Positions 5,884 through 47,180 of a stretch of DNA of 64,000 nucleotides are shown in pieces. The stretch spans positions 800,001 through 864,000 of the forward strand of contig CAWDXE010000007.1 of NCBI GenBank assembly GCA_963806185.1, written 5' to 3'. This stretch comes from an uncultured candidate division Zixibacteria bacterium. GTDB lineage: Bacteria > Zixibacteria > MSB-5A5 > GN15 > FEB-12. A program made the translations under genes and the position numbers. The notes below the pieces were generated by a model. That model was given only the letters and a program-made list of their open reading frames with translations. It searched no databases and was not told where the DNA came from. Each line of letters opens with the position of its first letter. Within the stretch, counting starts at the first letter, position 1.

Positions 5884-7482
5884 TTATTGCATGATGAGTA
5901 TGTCAATCCGCCGGTTCTTAGCCCTTCCTTCCGGTGTACTTTGCGAGGCGATCGGCTTCTCGGATCCATACCCTATCGCCCGAATTCTGTCCGACGGTAT
6001 ATTCATAGTTTGGCGCAGATATTGCATGACTGCAAACGCTCGCTTCTCCGACAACTGTGTATTGGCCGCCGGCTCGCCCCGATCGTCGGTATGCCCCTCA
6101 ATCACCAACGGTGACTCGGGGAAGAGGCCGATGATTTGCTTCACCTTTTCAAGCAAGGGCAACTGCTGATCGACTATCTCGCTCTTGCCCGCCGCAAACG
6201 ACAGCCCGGACAATCGCAAGACGATGTCATTGGAGGCGTTGACGATCATCTCGCCCTGCGTCGGGTCAATCATCGACTTCGCCGTAATGAGCCGTTGTTC
6301 GCGCTCTTCCTTGGATTGCAGCGCGGTAGTCACTTCACGATGTTCCTCTGAAAGTTGGGTGAGCTTGCTTTGTTCGGCCGCCACCTGTTCGGAGAGGCGG
6401 CTCCGCTCCACCGCGACTCCTGCCGCGATACTGTCGATGGCCTGGAGCATCCCCATTGGACTCTGAATGGTGGTGTCCCCGCCAAGCGCCACCAGCGTCG
6501 ACATAAGGCTCTCCCGAAGCTGCTCGCGCGTGCCTTTCACTTCTTCCATTTCTCTGCCCAGTTTAGCCAGGGAGTCGCGCAACACGTTTACGTCGGCCGA
6601 TGATGACGACCGCAGCGCCTGTATTCCGGAGATCAGCGAGTCGGCGGCTTTTGACGGTCCCAGGTCGAATGGCAGATGATCTATCCCCAGAAGCAGTCCT
6701 GCGCGGTCCATCTGGATTTCATAGAGCAGCATCAACTTCTCCCAAGCCTGATCGTTTCTATTGAGCGACCGAACCGACTGGGAGATATTCGATGCGTGGC
6801 GGGCCTCGTATTCCGCCTCGGTCGCCGTCTTGGTGGCTTCCGTCCGGTTATACCGATTGGCCGTCAATATACCATTCGCCTTCTCGCGGGCCGTTTTGGC
6901 CTTGTCGAGTATGGTCAGGGCATATTTGGGCGCTTCATCCGCTGTGGCAGTGGCGATCAGCTTGTCGGCCGCTCCGAGTACGTCGACCCGAATCGACTCC
7001 ATCTCCGCAACATCGTAGAGAGGCGTCGATTTGGCTGCCTCTTTCAGTCCCCCCTTGACGTCACCGGACTCAACCTTGGCCGCCGCGGCAATGAATTGCG
7101 CCTCCGCTTTGTCGTATAGCGTGGTCACCAGCATAGGTGCCTTGGCGACGCGCGCCTTTGTTCGGGCCGGCAGATATTCTCGTAATGACAACTTGCAGAC
7201 ATCGGTGTTTTTGAGCGCATTTTCGCCGTATTCACGTGCCTTGGCGAAATACCCGGTCACCGTCGAAGCTCCCCGTTTCAAGCTGACCGCCTGCTGCCCC
7301 ATGTCAAACTGCGCCTTCGCTTTCTCGTAAGCCTTGGGGGAGAATATGGGCGCTTCCACTACCTTGAGCGAATCAAGCAACCGCTGCACCTCGGCGCCGT
7401 CAGCGCCGCTTTGTGCCCGGCCGTTATCTGCCAGCACGCACATCGCCAACGTCGCGAGAATAAGCTTGAATCCATTCTTCAT
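5884..7482 (-). CDS. OmpA-family peptidoglycan-binding protein with long helical/coiled-coil N-terminus
   Basis: Signal peptide; C-terminal IEGHTD.RG...N..LSEKRA..V...GYGSEKP...NRRIDI. Confidence 0.88.
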   Translation of the reverse strand: MKNGFKLILATLAMCVLADNGRAQSGADGAEVQRLLDSLKVVEAPIFSPKAYEKAKAQFDMGQQAVSLKRGASTVTGYFAKAREYGENALKNTDVCKLSLREYLPARTKARVAKAPMLVTTLYDKAEAQFIAAAAKVESGDVKGGLKEAAKSTPLYDVAEMESIRVDVLGAADKLIATATADEAPKYALTILDKAKTAREKANGILTANRYNRTEATKTATEAEYEARHASNISQSVRSLNRNDQAWEKLMLLYEIQMDRAGLLLGIDHLPFDLGPSKAADSLISGIQALRSSSSADVNVLRDSLAKLGREMEEVKGTREQLRESLMSTLVALGGDTTIQSPMGMLQAIDSIAAGVAVERSRLSEQVAAEQSKLTQLSEEHREVTTALQSKEEREQRLITAKSMIDPTQGEMIVNASNDIVLRLSGLSFAAGKSEIVDQQLPLLEKVKQIIGLFPESPLVIEGHTDDRGEPAANTQLSEKRAFAVMQYLRQTMNIPSDRIRAIGYGSEKPIASQSTPEGRAKNRRIDILIMQ

Positions 7483-7852
7483 TTGATATTACTCCGGATA
7501 GGCGTGATTGATTTTGTACTGGGAAATTGGGGCCCTTGATCCGGTCACGCAAGCCTAAAACTCGCGCCCCCGGCGACGGCTCGGACGGTCGCAATCGGAG
7601 GATAAACCCCCATCGAGAAACCGACGGGACTCACGAAACCAAGTTCGCATGTTAAGAGTGCCTGTTCACAGCCTCTTAGTACACCCGGACAGGCAACTAA
7701 TTCTGTTGCATTCTGGCGCTATTCGTCTACTTTATTGATAGGGACTATAGGACGTCATCGTCTGCCATATTATGTCAACGCTTCACGGTCACGCATGCAT
7801 CGGATTCTTGACAACACACTGAAGTAACATCCGCCCGCGACGCCACTGAACT

Positions 7853-8401
7853 ATGCCTCAATCTATCGCACAACTCTGGTCAGGCATTCTGGATGGCAAT
7901 CCGCGCTCGTGGGAGGAGATGGTCCGCCGCTTCAATCCGCTGGTTGTCGCCGCCGCTCGGGCTCACGGTCTTGCGGCGGTGGATTTGGAGGATTGTGCCC
8001 AGCAGACCTGGTTGGCCCTCTACACCGGCCGGGCACACATCAATGATCCCCTGGCCATACCGACATGGCTCGTCACCGTCGCCAAACGCAAAGCGCAACG
8101 CCTGCAAATAAGACAGAAGGCCGGAACCACCGCAGAACAGGAATTCAACCCGGAAGCCAACAGCGTCTCACCCGAAGATTTATATGTCAAGGCGCTCGAG
8201 GCGGCACGCCTCCATATCGCCCTCGAGCTGTTGGACAGCCGCTGTGCCCGCCTGCTCAAGCGATTGTTTCTGGCATCGGAAGAATATACGTACCAGGAAA
8301 TTGCCGAAGAATTACGGATCGCGCCCAACAGCCTCGGCCCAATCCGCTCCCGCTGTCTGGCCCGGTTGCGCAAAATCCTGAGTGAACTTGATCACGGATA
8401 G
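7853..8401 (+). CDS. ECF sigma-70 family sigma factor
   Basis: Region 2 DLEDCAQQTWLAL...PTWLVTVAKR; region 4 YQEIAEELRIAPNSLGPIRSRCLARLR. Confidence 0.9.
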   Translation: MPQSIAQLWSGILDGNPRSWEEMVRRFNPLVVAAARAHGLAAVDLEDCAQQTWLALYTGRAHINDPLAIPTWLVTVAKRKAQRLQIRQKAGTTAEQEFNPEANSVSPEDLYVKALEAARLHIALELLDSRCARLLKRLFLASEEYTYQEIAEELRIAPNSLGPIRSRCLARLRKILSELDHG

Positions 8402-8491
8402 TACTAACTCCCTTTGAGCCGGTACTTATTGAATGACTGGCCTGATCGCATACGACGGTCCGAGCCACGCCCGCGAAACGAGACCTGATTT

Positions 8492-9055
8492 ATGACAAAT
8501 GCCACCAAACATCCCTCGAGACAGGCGCTTCACCGTCACCTGCAAGTTGCCGAATCCAGCATCTCCCGGCATCTGAAAAGTTGCGAAGACTGCCGACTAA
8601 TTGTCCACTCAATGCGCCACCTTATGGCTGTTGACGATCAGGCGGCCGACCGGGCCCGCCGGGAGTCTCTGGTGCAAAGCATCTTGAGTGTGCCGGCACT
8701 CTCCGCTCCTCCGGCAGGCCGCCCGCGCCTCGCTCCAATTGTGCGGGATTCGTGGCAATCCGCCATGGTTGCCCAATTGCGTCACGCCGCTCACGGGGTA
8801 GAAAGACGCCTGAGATTCCACGTCGGCGACATTACCGTCGACCTCGTCGCCGATCGTCTCGGCGACAAGTGGAACTGCTCTATGCGCATCAGCCGCCGGG
8901 GACGGTCCGTCTCTCAATTCGCGGCCAGCCTCGGCAAGCGGAAGATGCTGCCGGTCGACGTCGGCTTCTTCTCCTGGGTGGCCAAACGCCCGCCTAAGCA
9001 AATTCGACTATGGTCTTCCGATTCGAAAATCCTCCTGGAGACCATACCGTGGTAG
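8492..9055 (+). CDS. Putative soluble zinc-binding anti-sigma factor
   Basis: N-terminal H...HLKSCEDC (ZAS-like HxxxCxxC); no TM helix; directly downstream of the sigma gene; beta-rich C-terminal part. Confidence 0.6.
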   Translation: MTNATKHPSRQALHRHLQVAESSISRHLKSCEDCRLIVHSMRHLMAVDDQAADRARRESLVQSILSVPALSAPPAGRPRLAPIVRDSWQSAMVAQLRHAAHGVERRLRFHVGDITVDLVADRLGDKWNCSMRISRRGRSVSQFAASLGKRKMLPVDVGFFSWVAKRPPKQIRLWSSDSKILLETIPW

Positions 9056-11820
9056 CCTCACGCCCAAAGCTCAGTCTGGCTGCCCGGCGCTTCCTGGACG
9101 GCGGGGGAATCCCGTCCGATCCATCGGCCATGATCCGGGAATGCGACACTTATGTCCGGAAATACACCCAGGTTGACCTGGTCAAAGCCAGAACCCTGGC
9201 CCACCAGTTTGTTCTCCGAACCCGCACCCTGCCACCAGCCGACCGGGCCACCGCACTCCGCGCCCTTGGTTGGACCTGCCAAGTGGGTGCCGCCTATCGG
9301 GAAGCCGAATCCGCTTACCTCAAAGCCCGCAAGCTGGCTGGAAACGACACCGATCTGCGCGCTCGTATCGACCGCATTCTCATCGATGTATATATGTATC
9401 TGGGCGACTACCGCGAAGCCGTCCGTCGGGCGCGCATCGCCATCGCCGCTTTTCGCCGTTTGCACGACCGCGACGGAGAAGCCAAGACCCTCGTTAATCT
9501 CGCCAACGTGTTCCATCGTCAGGATCGGCACGTCGATGCCCTGCGGCTGTATCGAAAAGCCGCCCGGCACTACGAAAATACAAGTGACAAGCTCACCTTG
9601 GGTGTGTGCAGCTACAATTGTGCCAACTGTCTGGTGCAGTTGCTCCAGTTTGACGAGGCCGATGCTCTCTATCGGAGCGCCGAACGGCTGTTTGGCGAGG
9701 TCGAGTATGGCCTCTATGTCAACGAGGCCAGATACGGCCGCGCCTGGTTGGATAAGCTCCGGGGCAATTATCACCTCTCCCTCCGCGCCCTCGCCGAATG
9801 CGAGGAGGAATATCGAAAGATTGGTCAGCCGAAGGGGGTGACGCTCTGCCAGCTCGATCGTGCCGAAGTCATGCTCGAATTGCAGCTCCTCTCTGATGCC
9901 CGGGCCCTTGCTAAAGATGCCGAAAAAAGCGCTCGAAAACTCAAGATTCAGTATGAGGCTGCCAAAGCCGCGCTCTTCCTGGCGAAAGCTGCCTTCGGCC
10001 TCGGGGCAAATCGCGAGGCACAGGAGGCTCTCAGGCGCGCCCGCATTGGCTTTGAATCGGTTAAGAACGATACCATGGTCGGTGTCAGTCGATTCTATGA
10101 CGCCCTGTATCACGACGGTGAATCCAGCCTGGCTGAACTCGACTCGACTCGACGGCTGTTCCATTCCGCCCAATTGCCCCTCTGGCAGGCGGTGTGTGAT
10201 CTGACGTCAATGGCCATACGCGCGCCCCGATATGATGCGGCTACCCTTCAACGATTGGCGAAAAATCCCGCCGTTTCCTCCGTCCCGCACCTCTACGCAG
10301 GATGGAAAACACTTCTGGGTGATCGTTCGCTGAGTCGCCACGACCTCACCGGCGCCAAGCGCAACTGGACCCGGGCGGCCGATGCGCTTGATAAAATGCG
10401 GGCCAAACTCCCGCCCGTTGACATGCGTCAAACCCTGACCGAAAAAAGCCTGGATCCGTACAAGCGTATGTTTGGCCACGAAATGACTCGCCACCCCGAG
10501 GCGGCCGCCATTTGGTCCGAACGAAGCAAGATTGCGGGCATCTGGACATACGATCAATCGGCCGACCTCCCCGACGCTCGACGCAAAGTCGCCGACCGTC
10601 TGGCCGAATTGGCCCAACATGTCACGGCGCTCTCGTCATCGCTCGAACGAACCAGGGGAGAGGCGGCCGGCCAACTCTGGCCGACCGACAATCGATTCTG
10701 CCGACTGCAGGCTGAAATCAGACGTGACCTTCTGGCCGCGCACGAAAGCGACTTTTCCGTTGCCGGTACGCATAACACAATCAGGGATACCATCCGCGAT
10801 GCCTCAACGGTCAATCCTCTGGTGCAATTCCACATGGACGATGATCGACTGGTGGCCTTTGTCCATCAGCGAGGTGTCACTCGCACACACATCTACCCTG
10901 ACTCGCAGCGTATGCTGACCCGCTTTCTCGGTCAGTGGAATGTTCTGCTCATCAATACTGTCGCCCGGGGGCAACGGCAGCGTCTGGCCGACCGGGACGA
11001 GGAGACCCGCCTGCTAACCATGCTCGGCGACTGGCTCTGGAGACCGCTTGAGCTACCCTTGGATTGCCCACAAGTCACCATTATTCCAACCGGCGAGATG
11101 GCCAGTCTGCCTTGGTCAGCCATGATTGTCGATGGCTCTGCACTCATCGATCGTCATCGCTTCACCCTGGCTCCCAGTATCAGCCATTTTGCGGCTTCCG
11201 CCCGGTTTAGAATTACCAGCCGCTCAGCCCGAATCTTTGTGGGCGATACCAGCGGCCTCAAGTATGTCGCCGATGAACTCTCCGCCGTGTCACCGCTCCC
11301 CGCTGTCGACCTCGACGTCTGTCGACCATGCCTCCGGGAGAACTGGCCCCTGTCCGGAGAACATCTGCTCTGGCACTACATCGGCCACGCGCAATTTCGC
11401 GGCGATAATCCGTTTTATTCTTCACTCCTGCTGGAAGACGGCCCGATCTTCGCGGCCGATTTCCGACTGCGTTCCTGTCGGGTCGGCCTGGTCACCCTGG
11501 CCGCCTGCCGTACCGGCGTGCAATCGTCCGTGCCCGCCTACGAATCGACCGGCCTGGTACGGTCCCTCCTTGAAATGGGAGCGCAAAACGTCCTCGCCAG
11601 CCACTGGTCGGTGGGTGACCGCCCCACCGCCGACTGGATGAGGACCTTCTATGCTTTACTTGGCAACGGCCATACCCTGTTGGACTCCACACGCCTCACC
11701 ATTCAACGCATGCGCGAGATGTACCCGTCGGCCGGACAATGGGCCGCGTTTTCCCTGTTTGGTGCCGGTCGTGATGCCTGGGATAAGAATTTCTTCAAAA
11801 GAGATATGAGGAGAATGTGA
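9049..11820 (+). CDS. TPR-CHAT domain (caspase/separase-like) cysteine protease
   Basis: TPR-like helical repeats over the N-terminal half; CHAT motifs [19 protein letters not shown] (catalytic His), VTLAACRTG (catalytic Cys), [22 protein letters not shown]. Start placed at GTG 9049 after GGAG; the ORF is open from 9010. Confidence 0.9.
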
Positions 11821-14800
11821 TCATGCGTGCCAATCGATCAGTCAGTTGGTTGATCCCTCTGCTGGTGTTGCTTCTGGCGGCTACGGGAACGACCGGGGAG
11901 CACAATCCCTTTATCGTTGGACAACTGGTACTCAAGATGTTATCGGGCGGAGACGTCAACGCTCTGGCTCAGCAGTACAATCTGGACCTTCGACAACATT
12001 TGCCCCAAATTGACGTCTACCAGGTAGACGCAACGCCGGGTGCCGACCTCGATTCACTGTCGGCAGTGATCTCGGCGCAATCCGACGTCGAGTTCTGCCA
12101 TCCCAACTATGTGCTGGATCCACTGCGATCCGTGCAGAGCAGCCTGCCGATCTCCGACGACAAAGCCTTGCCTGACTATGAATCGCAGGGGTCGGTGAGT
12201 CGTCTCCAATTGACCGAGGTACATACTCTCACCACCGGTCAGGGAGTCAAGGTCGCCATTCTTGACGGCGGCGCCGAATTCTCCCATCCATTGATTTCCG
12301 GGGTCGTTCTTTCCGGCTATGATTATGTTGATGACGACGCCGACGCGTCCGACGTACCCGGCGGCAACAACTACGGCCACGGTACCTTCGTCGCCGGTAT
12401 CGTGCATCTCGTGGCCCCCGACGCACAAATCGTCGTCTACCGCGTCAGTGACCCCCAAGGCGAAGGGAATGGGTATATCGTCGCCGAGGCCCTCCTTCAG
12501 GCCGTTGCTGACGGCTGCAAGATTATCAACATGAGCATGGTCGTGCATGGATACCACATGGCTATCGCCAAGGCTGTCGAGTACGCCCGCGATCACAATG
12601 TCCTGGTCGTGGTCGCCGCCGGCAATGATCAGGAAAATCAAGGTGTTTTCCCGGCCGATCATCCGGACGTACTTTCGGTTCTGGCCGTCGACACGGCCGA
12701 TCACCTGTCCACTTTCTCAAATTACGGCAGCCATATCGACATCGCCGCCCCCGGCGAGCTGGTGGTAGGGCCTTACCACAGCGGTAAGTATGCGTTGTGG
12801 GGTGGAACGAGCTTTGCCGCGCCGTTCGTCGCCGGACAAGCGGCGTTGATCCTGTCGCTTGTGCCAAACATTCCCTGGAACAACCTCTTCCAGACCATCG
12901 TCAATTCCGCGGTCAATATCGATCTTAACAACCAGGGGTACGAGGGTCAACTGGGAAGCGGCCTGACCAATCCGCTCGGTTCGGTACAACAGGTCGAGCC
13001 TACCGACCTCCTGCACTTCGTGTGCTGGCCGGTGAGCAGCGGGGGAAATGGGCACTGGTATGGTGCGATCCCCGACCTGTTAAATTGGGACTCTGCCCGT
13101 CAACGGGCTACCACATACTCGTACGGGGGGTTCACGGGCCATCTCGCCACAGTCAATACGCCCGCCGAGAATAATTTCATCTATCAGCAGGTAATGGTCG
13201 GACTGACGCCAGGGTCGGTCCTTGAACAATACTTCCTCGGATCCCGGCTGGTCAACGGCCAGCGAACCTGGATAACCGGTGAGCCGTTCACGTATTCCAA
13301 TTGGGCGCCGGGAGAACCTGGTGGCGGCTTCAGCGAACCAGGATCTGCGATGTGGGGAAGCACGAATACTGCCGCCAATCGGACCCCCGGTACCTGGAAT
13401 GACGTCGCCATCGACCAAACATCCAGCAATTATCTCTATTTGGGGATAGTTGAATTCGGCGACACAGTTGACACCGACCCATTTGATTCCAGTGCTGTTT
13501 GCGGTAATGTCAACATGGATTTGCTCGGCCTGGTGGACACGGCCGACGTCTCAGCGCTCATGTCCTACCTCCACAAGGACTTGTCACTTAGTATCTCGCC
13601 AACAGCCGCTAATGTCGACTTGAGTGTGAACCTCGATAACAATGACGTCGTCGTGCTGGCCGATCATGTATACGGCGCCCACAATCCGCTGACGTGCGCG
13701 CCGACCTTCGTCGGTAACTACCCCCAGAACACTGCTGACGTGATCACGATCAGCCCCCTGACCATCACTCCGCCGTATGCGGCAAGGGTTGTTGCCGAAG
13801 TCACGTTCACTGCCAGCGAACCGTTCCGGGGTCTTTCCTTCACCTTTGAATACGGGTCTTACGGCAACTACGGATACCTCTCGAGCATCACGCTGCATGA
13901 TTCCGCCGACCAATGCATGACCGGAATCTTCCCGAACACCCACAACGGCGCGATTGCCCTGCTGGAACAAGACACCGACTTACCCGCCGGTGAATACCAC
14001 ATTGCCACGCTGGTCTTTGACAACGTCGTAGGGCCCTCACCGCAAATATTCCTCGATACGACCACCCTCAGCCGTGGCGCTCGAGTCGTGGTTTCTCGGC
14101 AAGGCGGACTCGTGTCTACAATTCCGGAGATCCTCGGCCGCAATCCTGGTTTCGACCTCGACGGTGACGGTGTCCCGGACGCTACCGACAACTGCGCGGT
14201 AAGAGCCAACCCGGATCAGCTTGACGGCGATAACGATGGGGTCGGTGATGCCTGCGATCCCGACTTCGTCTGTGGCAACATCGACTGTGATTTGACGCTC
14301 GACCTCAGCGACCTTGCTAGATATATCGATTACCTGCATTTCGGAGGTCCCTCCGACATATGTGAATCGGTGGCTGACCTCGATCAGTACGTCGGCCTCA
14401 CGAACAATGACATTGTCGCTTTCATTCGCTGGATTTTTGTCACCTTCGAACCCCTGCAGTGTTCGCCTACTCTCCTGGGTTCATTTCCGGTCGACCCCGG
14501 CGATATCCTGACGATTGGTGATCTTAACGTTCCGCCGAATACACCGACGTGGGATGTGCCACTCATGTTCACCGCCAGTGCTCCATTCGACGCCCTCGCC
14601 TTCCCCTTTGTCTACTCCTCAACCGGAGATCAAGCCGTCCTGTCTTCAGTCACGGTAGTTATGGGAGACCAAATGGAAGTTGGCCGGGCGTTCCCCGCCA
14701 CCCATTCCGGAACCGTTGCCTTCTCTTCGTTTCAAAATGACTTTGCTGCGGGGTCATATCTCATCGGGACGCTCCATTTCACCAATACGAGCTCACCCAC

Positions 14801-16682
14801 CGGCATGCAGATCACGCTCGACTCGACCACCAATTCTCGCGGGAGCACAACGGTGGTGTCGCGCGATTGGGGAGTGCTGCCAAGCATTCCGTCACTGCGG
14901 GCCTACGACCCGACACTTGACTGGGACGGCGATGGTGTCGGCGGGACGACGGACAACTGCCCTTTGGTCGCCAACCCGGATCAATCCGATCGGGATCATG
15001 ACGGCGTCGGCGATGCCTGCGACGAATGCCCGGATCTCGTCAACCCCTGCGCCGTTGTCTGCGGACTCACGGGCGACGTTACGCTCGACGGCAACGTCAA
15101 CATCGGCGATCTCACCTATCTGGCCGACTACCTCTATCTCGGTGGTCCTGCCCCGGTGAATCCGCTTACTGCCGACTGTGACAATGTGGCCGGCATAACA
15201 CCTCGCGACCTCGTGGTGCTCAACGGGTACCTCTTCGCGCACACCACGACACTATCCTGCCCGCCGAGTTCCGCGACCTATCCGCCAACCGATCCTTCGA
15301 TCGTCCTGCGACTGCCCAGCCTGCTTCCTGCGGGTGTGTCGCAGCTCGCCTGTCCGCTCTGGCTGGAGGCGCCGGTTGACGTCGTGTCCTTCAATCTCCC
15401 GCTCCAGGTGCGCGTGGGCGATGAAGTACCGGTTATCGATTCCTTCGTGCAATCGCCCTTCTTCAAAGCAACGACCGCGTGGATCATGAAGCCGGAGGAT
15501 CTGTTTTCGACCAAAGCCGACTCCGGAATCGCCCTGATTGCCGGTTCAACCGCCATGGTATCCGACCTGTCCTTGCCGGCCGGAAGCAATTTGCTTGGCA
15601 CCCTTTATATCACGGTCACGGCGAACGACAGTGATCGCACCGTCTCCGGTTCCTGGGGCCTCATGTACCCGCAGCATCCGCTGCCCGTTAGCTATCCCGA
15701 GGTCGGCTTGTTGCCGCAGATCGTGGGCAAAGGGGGACCATCGTTGGCCAAGCCGCTTGACCAGCTCGCCGTCATCTACACGCAATATACGCCGACGCTG
15801 ATCGAGGATCCCGGCTGCTGCCTCGGCATCAGAGGCAACGTCGATTGCGACCCGGCTGACAACATCGACATCGGCGACCTTACCTGCTTCATCCAGGGTC
15901 TGTTCCTCTTCGGCGAGGGTGGAGGATGTATGTGCTGCCTTGAAGAGGCCGACGTGAACAGGGACAACGGCGTTGACATCGCCGATCTTACCGACCTGAT
16001 ATGCTACCTCTTCTTGGACTGTGATCCTCCGCCGTCCTGTGGACCCGTCGCTCTCGGACTTGTCCCGGCTGCGAAAGTGCAGGCTGGCGTGACAATCAAC
16101 ACCGAATATGCCGACGGCAAGACCACCGTAACTCTTTCCTCCGACGTCGATCTCCTCGGTGTTCAACTCACACTTCCCGGTTCGTCGCTCGGCAAAGCGC
16201 AATCACGATCGCCGGAGGGCATGGAACTCTACCAGGGCACTTGGGACAATAGGACGCACATTGGATTATTGGATATGGAGGGAAAGCTCTCCTGGAGCCC
16301 AGGCAATCACACGCTGCTGGTCATCGACGGTGAGGCGACGATTACCGAAGCTATTGTGGCCGATCTGAATCACCATTCCTGGACCGCCGAGACTTCTTCC
16401 TCCAGGTCGTCGGTGCCGGCAACATTCTCATTGGCGCAGAACCACCCCAATCCGTTTAACCCGGCAACGACCATTGAGTTCAGTATTCCCAAACCCGCGC
16501 ACGTTGAACTGTCCGTGTACAACGTGAGCGGGCAATTGGTCGCCGTGCTCGTCGATCGGGAACTGCCGGCCGGCGCCCAGTCACTCGATTGGAACGCTTC
16601 CGCGCTCGCGAGCGGTGTGTACGTCTATCGCCTGACCACGCGCGATTATTCGGCGACGCGCAAGATGATTCTGCTCAAATAA
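11817..16682 (+). CDS. Secreted multidomain S8 (subtilisin-like) serine protease: prodomain, S8, C-type lectin, dockerin/cohesin-like and TSP3 repeats, FlgD/T9SS-like C-terminal domain
   Basis: Signal peptide; triad motifs [24 protein letters not shown] and oxyanion AAGND; CTL motifs [10 protein letters not shown] and [17 protein letters not shown]...WND; DxDGDGV...DNC repeats; C-terminal [19 protein letters not shown]...ASGVYVYRL. Confidence 0.92.
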
Positions 16683-16718
16683 TTGCGAACCCGCAGTCCC
16701 CGGGAAATCGCCCAGCAT

Positions 16719-16756
16719 CCCGGCAGCGATCGTGCCTTTTCGCTGCCGGGGTTTCT
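16719..16756 (+). terminator. Intrinsic terminator after the S8 gene
   Basis: 11-bp stem CCCGGCAGCGA / TCGCTGCCGGG followed by GTTTCT. Confidence 0.55.
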
Positions 16757-17468: not shown

Positions 17469-17482
17469 TCTCGGCAAATCTA

Positions 17483-17566
17483 TGCCGGAGGTCGGACTCG
17501 AACCGACATGTTCTTGCGAACGGGGGATTTTGAGTCCCCTGCGTCTACCAGTTTCACCACTCCGGC
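17483..17566 (-). tRNA. tRNA-Leu(CAA)
   Basis: Minus strand GCCGGAG...GGGGA-CT-CAA-AA-TCCCC, long variable arm, GGTTCGAGTCC, CTCCGGC-A; CCA not encoded. Confidence 0.96.
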
Positions 17567-17629
17567 AAGAATGCCCAAACTATACGCGACCCTTCACCTT
17601 GTCAAGATGGGAATTGACCGGACTCCGGC

Positions 17630-19780
17630 CTAAAAGTGCACTCGCTCGTTGGCCGTGTCCTCGACCACCGGCGTCCGACCGCGGGGCCGAATATACATCC
17701 CTCGCGACGGATGCAAATGACATGTCACCGTCGGCTGATTCTCAAACGTAAACAAGTCCGTCGCTACCTGCGTACACCGATCTGTCGCCAGTTCGCCCGA
17801 TTCCAAACAGACGTCCACTCTCACGATATCATCCGGCTGCTCGAAATCGGCAATCGGCAGCGAATCGTGCGCCGCCAACATGTACTCCGTCCAGACCGGC
17901 ACCGCATTACTCGAACCCTCCTGACCGTGCCCGAGCGACGTCTTGTCGTCGAATCCCAGCCAGACCCCCGCGGTAATCTGCGGCGTGAATCCCACAAACC
18001 AGTTATCGCAGAATTCGTTCGACGTCCCGGTCTTGCCCCCCGCCGGACGGCTGAATCCCATCGCCCGCGCGCGTACCCCCGTGCCCTCATCCACCACCGA
18101 ACGCATCATATCCACCATGATATACGCCGTCTGCGGCGACAGCACTTCGCTTTTCTGCACCACCGTGTGGTCCTCGAGCACCCGACCGTACCGATCGACA
18201 ATCTTCAGAATCATCCGGTAGGGGATATGTATCCCCTGGTTCGGAAAGACCGAAAACGCCGAGACCAGCTCGATCAGTTTCACCTCACTCACGCCGATCG
18301 CCAATGACGGCACGGGAGTGAGCGGCGTGGTAATGCCGAAACTCTTCGCGTAAAAAATCGCCTGCTCCGGGTTAATCTTCAACAGCAACCGAATGGCCGC
18401 CAGGTTGCGCGACTGCGCCAGCGCCGTCCGAAGCGTGATCGGCCCCATGAACTTGTCGTCAAAATTGTGTGGTCGCCATTGCTTGGCGCCGGGAATGTCG
18501 AGCACGATCGGATTGTCATCGATAATATCCGTCGGATGAAATCCATTGTCGATACAGGCCGTGTAGACAAACGGCTTGAAGGCCGACCCCGGCTGGCGAA
18601 GCGCCTGCACCGCGCGGTTGAACTTGGTCTTGTCGAACGACCGCCCGCCAATCATCGACAAAACATCACCGGTGACATTGTCGATCGCAACAAACGCTCC
18701 CTGAATCTTCTTCCATGTCCTGATCGAATCCCCAAACCGATTCACCGTGTCCGGCAAAATCTGCGTGTACGCCTGATCAGACAGGGGATAGGTCCGTTCG
18801 ATCCTCGCCCGCATCGAGTCAATTTTCTTGTACAGCGAAACCTCGGCCTTGCGCTGAAGTCGCGCATCCAGCGACGTGTACACCTTCAGCCCGCCGGAAT
18901 AGAGCTGATCCTCGCCATATTTCCCAATCAGATACTGGCGAACGGTCTCGGTGAAGTACGGCGCCTGTCCGCCCGCTTCCTCCGGCGGCGAAATCTCGAC
19001 CGGCCGACTTTTCAACGAGTCAAATTGGGCCTCGGTGATCCCGCCCCACGAATAGTACGAATACAGCACTCGGTTGCGCGCCTGCAGCGCCTTGTCCGTA
19101 CTGCTTAGCGGCGAATTGATATTCGGCCCCTTGAGCAAACCGATCAGGATAGCACAATCGTTTATGTTCAGATCGGCCACTCGTTTGTCGAAAAGCGCCC
19201 GGGCCGCGGCCGCAACACCGTACGAACCCCTCCCGAAATAATGCTGGTTAAGATACATCTCCAGTATCTCGTCCTTCGAATACGTCCGCTCCAGCTTGAT
19301 CGCGGTCAACGCTTCCTTGATCTTGCGCGACATCGTCCTCTCCGGCGTCAGGAACAGCATGCGCGATACCTGCTGCGTGATCGTCGACGCACCGGCTTTG
19401 ATCTGCCAGTGCACGACATTGGTGAGCGCAACCAGGAAGAGCCGTCGAAGGTTGATCCCCCAATGGTGGTAGAATTCCTGATCCTCGGACGCGATCAGCA
19501 TCTCCACCAGCGGCTTCGGCATATCGGTCAGCGGCGTCAGTGCCCGGTTCTCGGTGTAGAATTCCTTGAGGAGCACGCCGTTGCGATCGTACAACTTCGT
19601 GCTCAGGTTCGGCTCTATATTGTGCAGTTGTTCAAATGAGGGAAGTTCCGACTGATAGACCCGATACGTCATCCAGGCGCCATACCCGAATGCCGCCAGA
19701 ACGATCACCGCCGCAACCGTGAGCACGGTTCGCCAGGGTGATCGGCCTCGGCCGTCTGATGCAAATGAAAACCAGCTCAT
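17630..19780 (-). CDS. mrcA: Class A penicillin-binding protein (PBP1A family)
   Basis: N-terminal TM; transglycosylase EDQEFYHHWG, GASTITQQ, RKIKE; transpeptidase SAFK, SRN, KTGT. Confidence 0.9.
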   Translation of the reverse strand: MSWFSFASDGRGRSPWRTVLTVAAVIVLAAFGYGAWMTYRVYQSELPSFEQLHNIEPNLSTKLYDRNGVLLKEFYTENRALTPLTDMPKPLVEMLIASEDQEFYHHWGINLRRLFLVALTNVVHWQIKAGASTITQQVSRMLFLTPERTMSRKIKEALTAIKLERTYSKDEILEMYLNQHYFGRGSYGVAAAARALFDKRVADLNINDCAILIGLLKGPNINSPLSSTDKALQARNRVLYSYYSWGGITEAQFDSLKSRPVEISPPEEAGGQAPYFTETVRQYLIGKYGEDQLYSGGLKVYTSLDARLQRKAEVSLYKKIDSMRARIERTYPLSDQAYTQILPDTVNRFGDSIRTWKKIQGAFVAIDNVTGDVLSMIGGRSFDKTKFNRAVQALRQPGSAFKPFVYTACIDNGFHPTDIIDDNPIVLDIPGAKQWRPHNFDDKFMGPITLRTALAQSRNLAAIRLLLKINPEQAIFYAKSFGITTPLTPVPSLAIGVSEVKLIELVSAFSVFPNQGIHIPYRMILKIVDRYGRVLEDHTVVQKSEVLSPQTAYIMVDMMRSVVDEGTGVRARAMGFSRPAGGKTGTSNEFCDNWFVGFTPQITAGVWLGFDDKTSLGHGQEGSSNAVPVWTEYMLAAHDSLPIADFEQPDDIVRVDVCLESGELATDRCTQVATDLFTFENQPTVTCHLHPSRGMYIRPRGRTPVVEDTANERVHF

Positions 19781-47073: not shown

Positions 47074-47146
47074 GGGGCCTTAGCTCAGCTGGGAGAGCGC
47101 TTGACTGGCAGTCAAGAGGTCGCGAGTTCGATCCTCGCAGGCTCCA
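47074..47146 (+). tRNA. tRNA-Ala(GGC)
   Basis: GGGGCCT / AGGCTCC acceptor stem with G3:U70; CTTGA-CT-GGC-AG-TCAAG; GAGTTCGATCCTC; CCA not encoded. Confidence 0.97.
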
Positions 47147-47180
47147 CTTTTTTTGCCCCAAACTTAATCACCCATCGCAC

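Follow-up and report, generated by a model that had tools for sequence, protein, structure and literature searches.

A four-gene unit that encodes a sigma factor of the extracytoplasmic function (ECF) type, a small soluble protein, a TPR-CHAT protease and a secreted S8 subtilase was analysed in DNA from an uncultured candidate division Zixibacteria bacterium (assembly GCA_963806185.1, contig CAWDXE010000007.1, positions 800,001 to 864,000 of the forward strand). The unit occupies positions 7853–16682 of this 64,000-nucleotide stretch, which is referred to here as the window. It is a real and conserved unit that exists independently of clustered regularly interspaced short palindromic repeat (CRISPR) systems, and the most likely reading of its function, to which a probability of roughly 0.55 is assigned, is that of a protease-gated anti-sigma switch controlling exported proteins. 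According to this reading, the small protein, of 187 residues, probably holds the ECF sigma factor inactive via its anti-sigma domain (ASD) helices, with zinc being optional, until a peptide ligand binds to the TPR groove of the cytoplasmic CHAT protein and activates it. The activated protease would then probably cut the small protein after Arg97, and the N-terminal fragment would be degraded, by analogy with Csx30; degradation would be needed because the strand formed by residues 79–86 belongs to the downstream sandwich. The freed sigma factor would subsequently transcribe the genes for the anti-sigma protein, CHAT, S8 and other exported proteins from a predicted GTACTAA-N15-CTCT promoter, and since the anti-sigma and CHAT genes would both lie inside the regulon, the switch would have negative as well as positive feedback.

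All four genes are located on the forward strand. The first (7853–8401) encodes an ECF54-like sigma factor of 182 residues (Sigma70_r2, E 5e-9; TIGR02937 above cut-off), whereas the second (8492–9055) encodes the soluble anti-sigma-like protein, which has a helical zinc-binding anti-sigma (ZAS)/ASD region at residues 5–73 and a beta-sandwich at residues 79–187, with the invariant Arg97 in a loop. The third (9049–11820) encodes the cytoplasmic TPR-CHAT protease, of 923 residues from a GTG start (TPR_12, E 4e-17; CHAT, E 3e-31), and the fourth (11817–16682) the secreted S8 subtilase, of 1621 residues (Peptidase_S8, E 6e-44), with a type-A tail of the type IX secretion system (T9SS). A previous, sequence-only reading of this DNA described four co-directional genes, the last three overlapping and closed by one terminator. 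The overlaps were confirmed, at 9049–9055 (GTG..TAG) and 11817–11820 (GTGA). The longest open reading frame (ORF) in the CHAT frame opens at ATG 9010, but the start is most likely the GTG at 9049, since relatives align from residues 1–14 of the 923-residue form. As regards the terminator, a 13-bp terminator-like hairpin is present at 16717–16752 (+ strand; z −3.3, with 0 of 200 shuffles equally good), but its U-tail is weak and it is absent from the list produced by a consensus terminator scanner.

Conservation of the unit was examined in 285 genomes of the phylum, about half of which contain a match to the small protein (142) or to CHAT (140), the tallies of the two by family being identical with the exception of f1 (65 versus 63). 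CHAT had 231 matches, and in the best 29 loci other than the window's own the sigma gene and small gene are found upstream in 27, with the remaining two lying at contig ends, and an S8 gene is found downstream in 28. Selection by the sigma factor only returned 58 loci, from which three weak matches (L112–L114) were excluded to leave 55; no such neighbours were recognised by eye among the plus-strand ORFs of these three. The small gene comes after the sigma gene in 53 of the 55 loci, the two misses having less than 400 nt of contig left, and of the 43 loci that offer at least 3.8 kb of room, 42 carry the full set of four in order. The co-occurrence expected from the sequence-only reading was therefore borne out, although the CHAT-picked and sigma-picked sets overlap and comprise related loci, and do not represent independent samples. 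Relatives are mostly labelled as Zixibacteria metagenome-assembled genomes, with some labelled as Ignavibacteria or unclassified, and the phylum includes a distant subfamily of the module at about 25% identity. Two apparent fusions were rejected: a 1058-residue frame in G041, seemingly joining the small protein to CHAT, is an artefact of an N run, and a 2288-residue frame in G098 resolves into separate CHAT and S8 ORFs.

The window's own genome (82% complete) carries a second copy of the module on the minus strand of contig C1 (889.2–884.0 kb; region 889.3–882.4 kb, L115:6401–13256), in which CHAT is interrupted and split over three ORFs in different frames, owing either to decay or to an assembly error. 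The S8 protein of this copy is short (470 residues), a second promoter motif precedes a gene for a DUF5666-like lipoprotein, and a CstA-family gene is located two genes downstream of S8. Independence from CRISPR, as claimed from the sequence, was upheld, in that neither the window nor any of 75 related loci yielded a CRISPR-like array and no match to RAMP or Cas1 was found in the genome, at its 82% completeness. Tandem repeats with near-identical units of about 69 and 85 nt occur elsewhere in this genome, at C1:835.8–836.9 kb and C3:11.5–11.8 kb, and were ruled out as CRISPR arrays.

The sigma factor groups with those of the Zixibacteria modules and with sigma factors from Nonomuraea and Streptomyces with 99/97 support, in a tree that has only nine other ECFs, all from the window's genome, as the outgroup. 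Two long-branch rows (L114 and C7:160529) were left out of this tree; L114 had fallen among the module sigmas in a preliminary tree that included it. A motif of the form G(T/G)AC(T/G)AA-N15/16-C(T/A)CT is present in 28 of 28 loci, where it lies just past or overlaps the sigma stop codon. When a matrix trained on 27 of these 28 loci was applied to 55 loci, some of them from genomes also used for training, the best site fell at +2 to +4 from the end of the sigma gene in 53. In the window, the corresponding predicted sigma-dependent promoter for genes 2–4 is at 8401–8427 (+ strand), with GTACTAA as the −35 element, a 15-nt spacer and TACTT as the −10 element. This conservation of a promoter-like sequence where the sigma gene ends suggests that genes 2–4 have a sigma-dependent transcript of their own, as opposed to all four forming one plain operon, and that the sigma factor would drive genes 2–4 but not itself.

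Further copies of the motif may mark additional outputs. A divergent copy in the window (7656–7682, − strand; 15.1 bits) faces a gene for an OmpA-domain protein, and divergent copies of at least 11 bits are found upstream of sigma in 12 of 55 loci, as opposed to 1 of 55 control windows. A copy at the same threshold also lies behind the S8 gene in 16 of 29 loci where that gene is short (control windows, 1 of 55), and in none of three where it is long. The genes behind the post-S8 copies encode exported proteins, those scanned being DUF5666 lipoproteins or CHRD proteins. One of six loci of the distant subfamily carries GTATCAA..CTCCT. Elsewhere in the clade, the locus of the Streptomyces plasmid sigma factor (L054) has GTATCCA-N15-CTCT at L054:8564–8590, ahead of an apparent cytochrome P450 gene recognised by eye, and none of its plus-strand ORFs was recognised as an S8, CHAT or small gene. 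A Miltoncostaea sigma factor (L056) has only a short S8 at +1.

The small protein contains an HxxxCxxC motif (H27-x3-C31-x2-C34) in addition to H7, and its best 19-residue hydropathy window (0.75) indicates that it has no transmembrane helix; a signal stretch is likewise absent. Its AlphaFold2 model (mean predicted local distance difference test (pLDDT) score of 86.7) comprises helices at residues 10–71 and sandwich strands at 79–86 and 104–182, with the block holding Arg97 (residues 91–100) modelled as a low-confidence loop (pLDDT 57). RsiW was the only PDB sequence match to a profile of the protein (E 0.063), and in the predicted structure RsiW (Z 4.8; root-mean-square deviation 3.5; 65 residues aligned) and RslA (Z 4.7) both align with the helices at the N-terminus. 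The best match in this structure comparison was to CrdA (VIA Z 7.9), a generic Ig-like sandwich, and a Foldseek search with the model returned nothing at E ≤0.001. The protein matches zf-HC2 weakly, at E 0.27, and among 25 members 7 reach an E value of 1 or lower. The ESM Atlas contains look-alike clusters from Acidobacteriota as well as Zixibacteria, of which one has 27% zf-HC2. No match to Csx30 was listed by sequence or fold, distant kinship being beyond the reach of these searches. Two of five distant-subfamily members match the carboxypeptidase-regulatory-like family PF13620 below cut-off (E 4e-4 and 4e-3); the window protein has no such Pfam match.

Residue conservation was assessed in the best 150 of 414 matches to the small protein. 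The zinc motif is dispensable in the family, being kept in 88 of the 132 relatives of at least 165 residues (18 shorter sequences were excluded, and at least one relative was miscounted owing to an N-terminal extension). Those without the motif keep Arg97 and, for the most part, the helix before the sandwich, which is aligned in the RsiW match. In L009, L011, L014, L015, L016, L021 and L026, and in about a third of P0001–P0150, a basic low-complexity N-terminus replaces both the zinc motif and the first helices. Arg97 (codon 8780–8782, + strand), in contrast to its variable flanks, is invariant in all 150 relatives and in 30 of 30 sequences of an alignment that includes the distant subfamily, within the consensus (G/A)(V/L)R(D/G). 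D86, S87 and R105 are likewise invariant in all covering rows (149–150), and D86 and R105 share with Arg97 their conservation across the distant subfamily.

The catalytic histidine of the CHAT protein is the second of the WHYIGHA motif (H780, at 11386), and together with C820 (at 11506) it is invariant in 30 of 30 aligned relatives. The N-terminus has no hydrophobic stretch (hydropathy maximum 0.16). The sequence-only reading had credited this protein with an intact His and Cys and no signal peptide, and the second gene product with HxxxCxxC and no transmembrane helix, and both descriptions are accurate. The AlphaFold2 model of CHAT (pLDDT 84.7) most closely matches human separase in a Foldseek search (E 9e-15; TMq 0.51), followed by Csx29 and DdvA (E 4e-12 for the latter), and it places the His-Cys dyad in a caspase-like fold behind the TPRs. 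Separase cuts after Arg by means of an Asp residue in its pocket (PMC10317155). A candidate for the equivalent residue is D857 (at 11617), present within W-x-V-x-D in 29 of 30 aligned rows and located five residues past a strand end, as is D1080 after T1075 in Caenorhabditis elegans separase (PMC4626109); the equivalence is suggested by position as opposed to residue-level superposition. No Asp is present at this position in the Csx29 chains listed, and the Csx29 family is described as cutting after Met or Leu (PMC10028731). Since the translationally coupled neighbour exposes an invariant Arg on a loop, and CHAT probably has a pocket for Arg, CHAT is predicted to cut after Arg97.

In the TPR region, N150, N153, H156, R157, D159, N190 and N193 are invariant, and the closest sequence matches are to LGN/Pins, kinesin light chain, AfsR and, weakly, RapJ (E 6e-6). 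The TPRs of LGN/Pins bind peptides, and a peptide may similarly be the ligand of the groove in the window protein. A different ECF sigma/membrane zinc anti-sigma pair is present at C7:160.5–165 kb of the same genome (L001), accompanied by a convergent TPR-CHAT gene with a 1071-residue frame; this locus resembles a split DdvA type.

A number of observations weigh against the proposed switch. The anti-sigma matches are weak, in that the RsiW match has an E value of 0.063 and the Z scores of the helices, all below 5, are within the range of common helical matches, while 44 of the 132 full-length relatives are without HxxxCxxC, many having a basic low-complexity N-terminus instead. The count for Arg97 was drawn from matches to a profile already invariant at that column, and since D86 and R105 are equally invariant, Arg97 could be a structural or docking residue. 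Moreover, the Arg of the protein encoded at +1 in a Nonomuraea locus is one column off in the alignment with the small protein. With regard to specificity, the Cys-Asp spacing is 37 in the window protein and 41 in human separase, a separase profile matches weakly (E 0.88), and in L011 an Asn replaces D857 although the partner small protein keeps Arg97. The other CHAT protein of the genome shares W-x-V-x-D, and the Asp is found in DdvA too; the residue is therefore not specific to the window family. Finally, the promoter matrix gave 95 matches of at least 13 bits across the genome, with the window's own sites ranked 22 and 23, and a genome-wide regulon based on it was dropped as too unspecific. 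The stand-alone switch of the sequence-only reading is supported in part, by gene co-occurrence, the anti-sigma-like N-terminus and an intact cytoplasmic CHAT; the zinc motif is not essential to the family.

The small protein could feasibly serve mainly as a partner of CHAT instead, as an inhibitor or adaptor comparable to securin or PCi, with the Arg97 loop docking in or near the active site. The real substrate of CHAT would then be the sigma factor or another protein, and control would proceed by partner switching or destruction of the sigma factor. That the invariant part of the protein is DSW..R..RR and the sandwich, as opposed to the zinc motif, is consistent with this arrangement, as is the overlap between the small gene and the CHAT start. 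There is also precedent in the literature, in that ECF54 has been proposed in print to be regulated with no anti-sigma involved (PMC7826278, PMC8999054), and in a type III-B cascade PCaspase cuts the sigma factor while PCi inhibits it (10.1101/2023.06.23.546230). However, securin blocks separase with a hydrophobic residue that replaces the Arg (PMC10317155), whereas the loop in question keeps its Arg. In addition, the full ZAS motif is present in two thirds of relatives, and the zinc-less ones mostly keep the RsiW-aligned helix. A role mainly as a partner of CHAT is considered unlikely in comparison with that of a cleaved anti-sigma protein.

The S8 subtilase has a hydrophobic, signal-peptide-like N-terminus, a prodomain and the catalytic residues D150, H188, N270 and S332, followed by a C-terminal part with weak C-lectin-like and dockerin matches and TSP3 repeats. 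Targeting to the cell surface is plausible, since this N-terminus is combined with a T9SS type-A tail that scores well above cut-off (TIGR04183, 40.8 bits versus 23) in a genome with matches to SprA and PorV and 46 T9SS-tail matches. Across loci the protein ranges from about 460 to 2173 residues, with the catalytic part constant, indicating that the large C-terminal cargo is lineage-specific. The fourth gene itself can differ: in L040 (6081–10100) it encodes a 1340-residue FG-GAP protein with a T9SS tail, and in L066 (near 11761) a 187-residue exported acidic protein, neither of the two being a protease. The sequence-only reading had the freed sigma factor inducing a large subtilase as its effector. 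The location of S8 downstream of a sigma-type promoter motif accords with such a role, but S8 appears to be one replaceable output among several exported proteins.

The subtilase might also be part of the input. The exported enzyme would in this case release peptides, either its own or those of outside proteins, and these would be taken up by the cell to occupy the TPR groove, thereby creating a self-amplifying loop of the RRNPP type. Such an arrangement could account for the presence of S8 after CHAT in 42 of 43 loci while the cargo domains vary freely, and the invariant Asn residues of the TPR groove, the weak match to RapJ and the CstA-family gene of the second copy are in keeping with it. 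On the other hand, a non-S8 exported protein takes that position in L066 and in L040, the latter belonging to a genome of one contig in which CHAT is matched once. Inspection by eye of the 13 loci listed also revealed no conserved ORF for a small peptide behind the divergent motif. Peptide feedback of this kind seems improbable, but it is compatible with the protease-gated switch and would alter only the role of S8.

Comparison with characterised systems provides additional context. In the type III-E Craspase (PMC10028731) a cytoplasmic TPR-CHAT protein (Csx29) likewise stands beside a soluble, two-part sigma inhibitor (Csx30) and an ECF sigma factor (CASP-sigma); Csx30 is cut in its C-terminal domain, its N-terminal fragment is unstable, and sigma motifs are found inside the locus. 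The window differs from Craspase in being without Cas7-11, crRNA and Csx31, and in the predicted cleavage (P1) residue, which is Arg as opposed to Met or Leu. The DdvA/DdvS system of Myxococcus xanthus (PMC11506125; PDB 8rot, 8rw5) similarly unites a ZAS domain, a TPR-CHAT protein and an ECF sigma factor in one circuit. DdvA, however, is a single-chain membrane protein whose CHAT domain lies in the periplasm, and it controls an island comprising a cyclic-oligonucleotide-based anti-phage signalling system (CBASS) and CRISPR (PMC11506125), whereas in the window the parts are separate and soluble, without a transmembrane helix or a single ZAS-TM-CHAT chain, and the predicted outputs are exported proteins. 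An anti-phage or cell-death function of the Craspase or DdvA/DdvS kind, which might be expected from the fact that the characterised TPR-CHAT/sigma systems compared here are, as far as described, all defence-linked, is very improbable given that neither RAMP nor Cas1 was matched in the genome (82% complete), that arrays are absent from 75 loci and that the motif-linked genes encode exported enzymes and lipoproteins. Separase shares with the window protein a TPR-like scaffold with a caspase-like domain and the candidate Asp in the pocket for the P1 residue, but it is eukaryotic and cuts cohesin at ExxR, and no ExxR consensus precedes Arg97. The system in PMC8195603 is a different caspase/ECF system.

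The closest published counterpart is ECF54, a group described as 100% actinobacterial in which the +1 gene is carboxypeptidase-regulatory-like, subtilase, CHAT and TPR genes are nearby, the predicted promoter is GTATCAG/CTCC and there is no putative anti-sigma (PMC7826278); the context is repeated elsewhere as a case of proposed proteolytic control (PMC8999054). The window likewise has an ECF sigma factor, a small beta-sandwich gene at +1 and adjacent TPR-CHAT and subtilase genes, and its promoter geometry is similar. It differs in belonging to another phylum, in the collinear order sigma-small-CHAT-S8, in its −35 element (GTACTAA) and in a +1 protein that combines HxxxCxxC with a helical domain resembling RsiW. 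A search with the window's sigma factor led to a Nonomuraea locus that has a frameshifted TPR-CHAT gene at −2, S8 at −1 with the exact ECF54 −35 element (GTATCAG) directly before it, and a 156-residue protein at +1. The latter, which hhalign aligns with the window's small protein at E 0.006 and a probability of 6%, carries a similar YDS..LR..R motif. The window S8 has a signal peptide and T9SS tail, whereas the N-terminus of the Nonomuraea S8, inspected by eye, has no hydrophobic signal stretch. The unit of the window thus appears to work like ECF54, but it is not assigned to that group, since it departs from it in the −35 core and in having a ZAS, and its sigma factor is placed by a proxy tree. 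The novelty implied by the sequence-only reading must also be qualified: no experimental study of the module was found in the literature searched, to which subscription papers, Huang 2015 and the rest of the PMC7826278 supplement may add, but the gene set is already in print, uncharacterised, as the genomic context of actinobacterial ECF54 (PMC7826278, PMC8999054). The present work adds the promoter-like motif, the invariant Arg97 as predicted cut site, the dispensability of the zinc motif and, from two loci, the replaceability of S8.

Upstream of the module, the gene faced by the divergent motif (5884–7482, − strand) encodes an exported protein of 532 residues whose N-terminal region is long and helical and whose C-terminus carries an OmpA domain (Pfam OmpA, E 9e-20). 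It had no blastp match among those listed from a survey of 20 loci, and is regarded as a candidate target of the divergent promoter and not as a conserved neighbour. A hairpin is located at 7608–7629, inside the leader of this gene. Downstream, a tRNA-Leu(CAA) gene lies at 17482–17567 (− strand), 0.8 kb from the module and beyond a GNAT gene; the ORF listed at 17482–17751 is probably spurious because this tRNA overlaps it. A tRNA-Ala(GGC) gene is present at 47074–47147 (+ strand).

ECF54 sigma factors are listed without an anti-sigma and with an unknown mode of control, and it is the Zixibacteria version that keeps an explicit zinc anti-sigma motif at +1. The analysis yields three concrete predictions, namely Arg97 as the cut site, Asp857 as the specificity residue and 8401–8427 as the promoter. 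In its boldest form, the proposal would be that of a fully soluble separase switch, in which a peptide-sensing, Arg-specific TPR-CHAT protein cleaves a soluble anti-sigma at a bait loop with one site so as to release a secretome regulon, the arrangement being widespread and the activating peptide possibly made by S8. This is put forward tentatively, at somewhat under even odds, but if true it would give the ECF54 class as a whole its missing anti-sigma and a mechanism, and would constitute a non-defence, CRISPR-free counterpart of Craspase signalling. Should the three predictions be true, the three-protein core would be a compact protease-gated transcription switch, and CHAT/sigma signalling would be a general cytoplasmic route of signal transduction as opposed to a CRISPR accessory.

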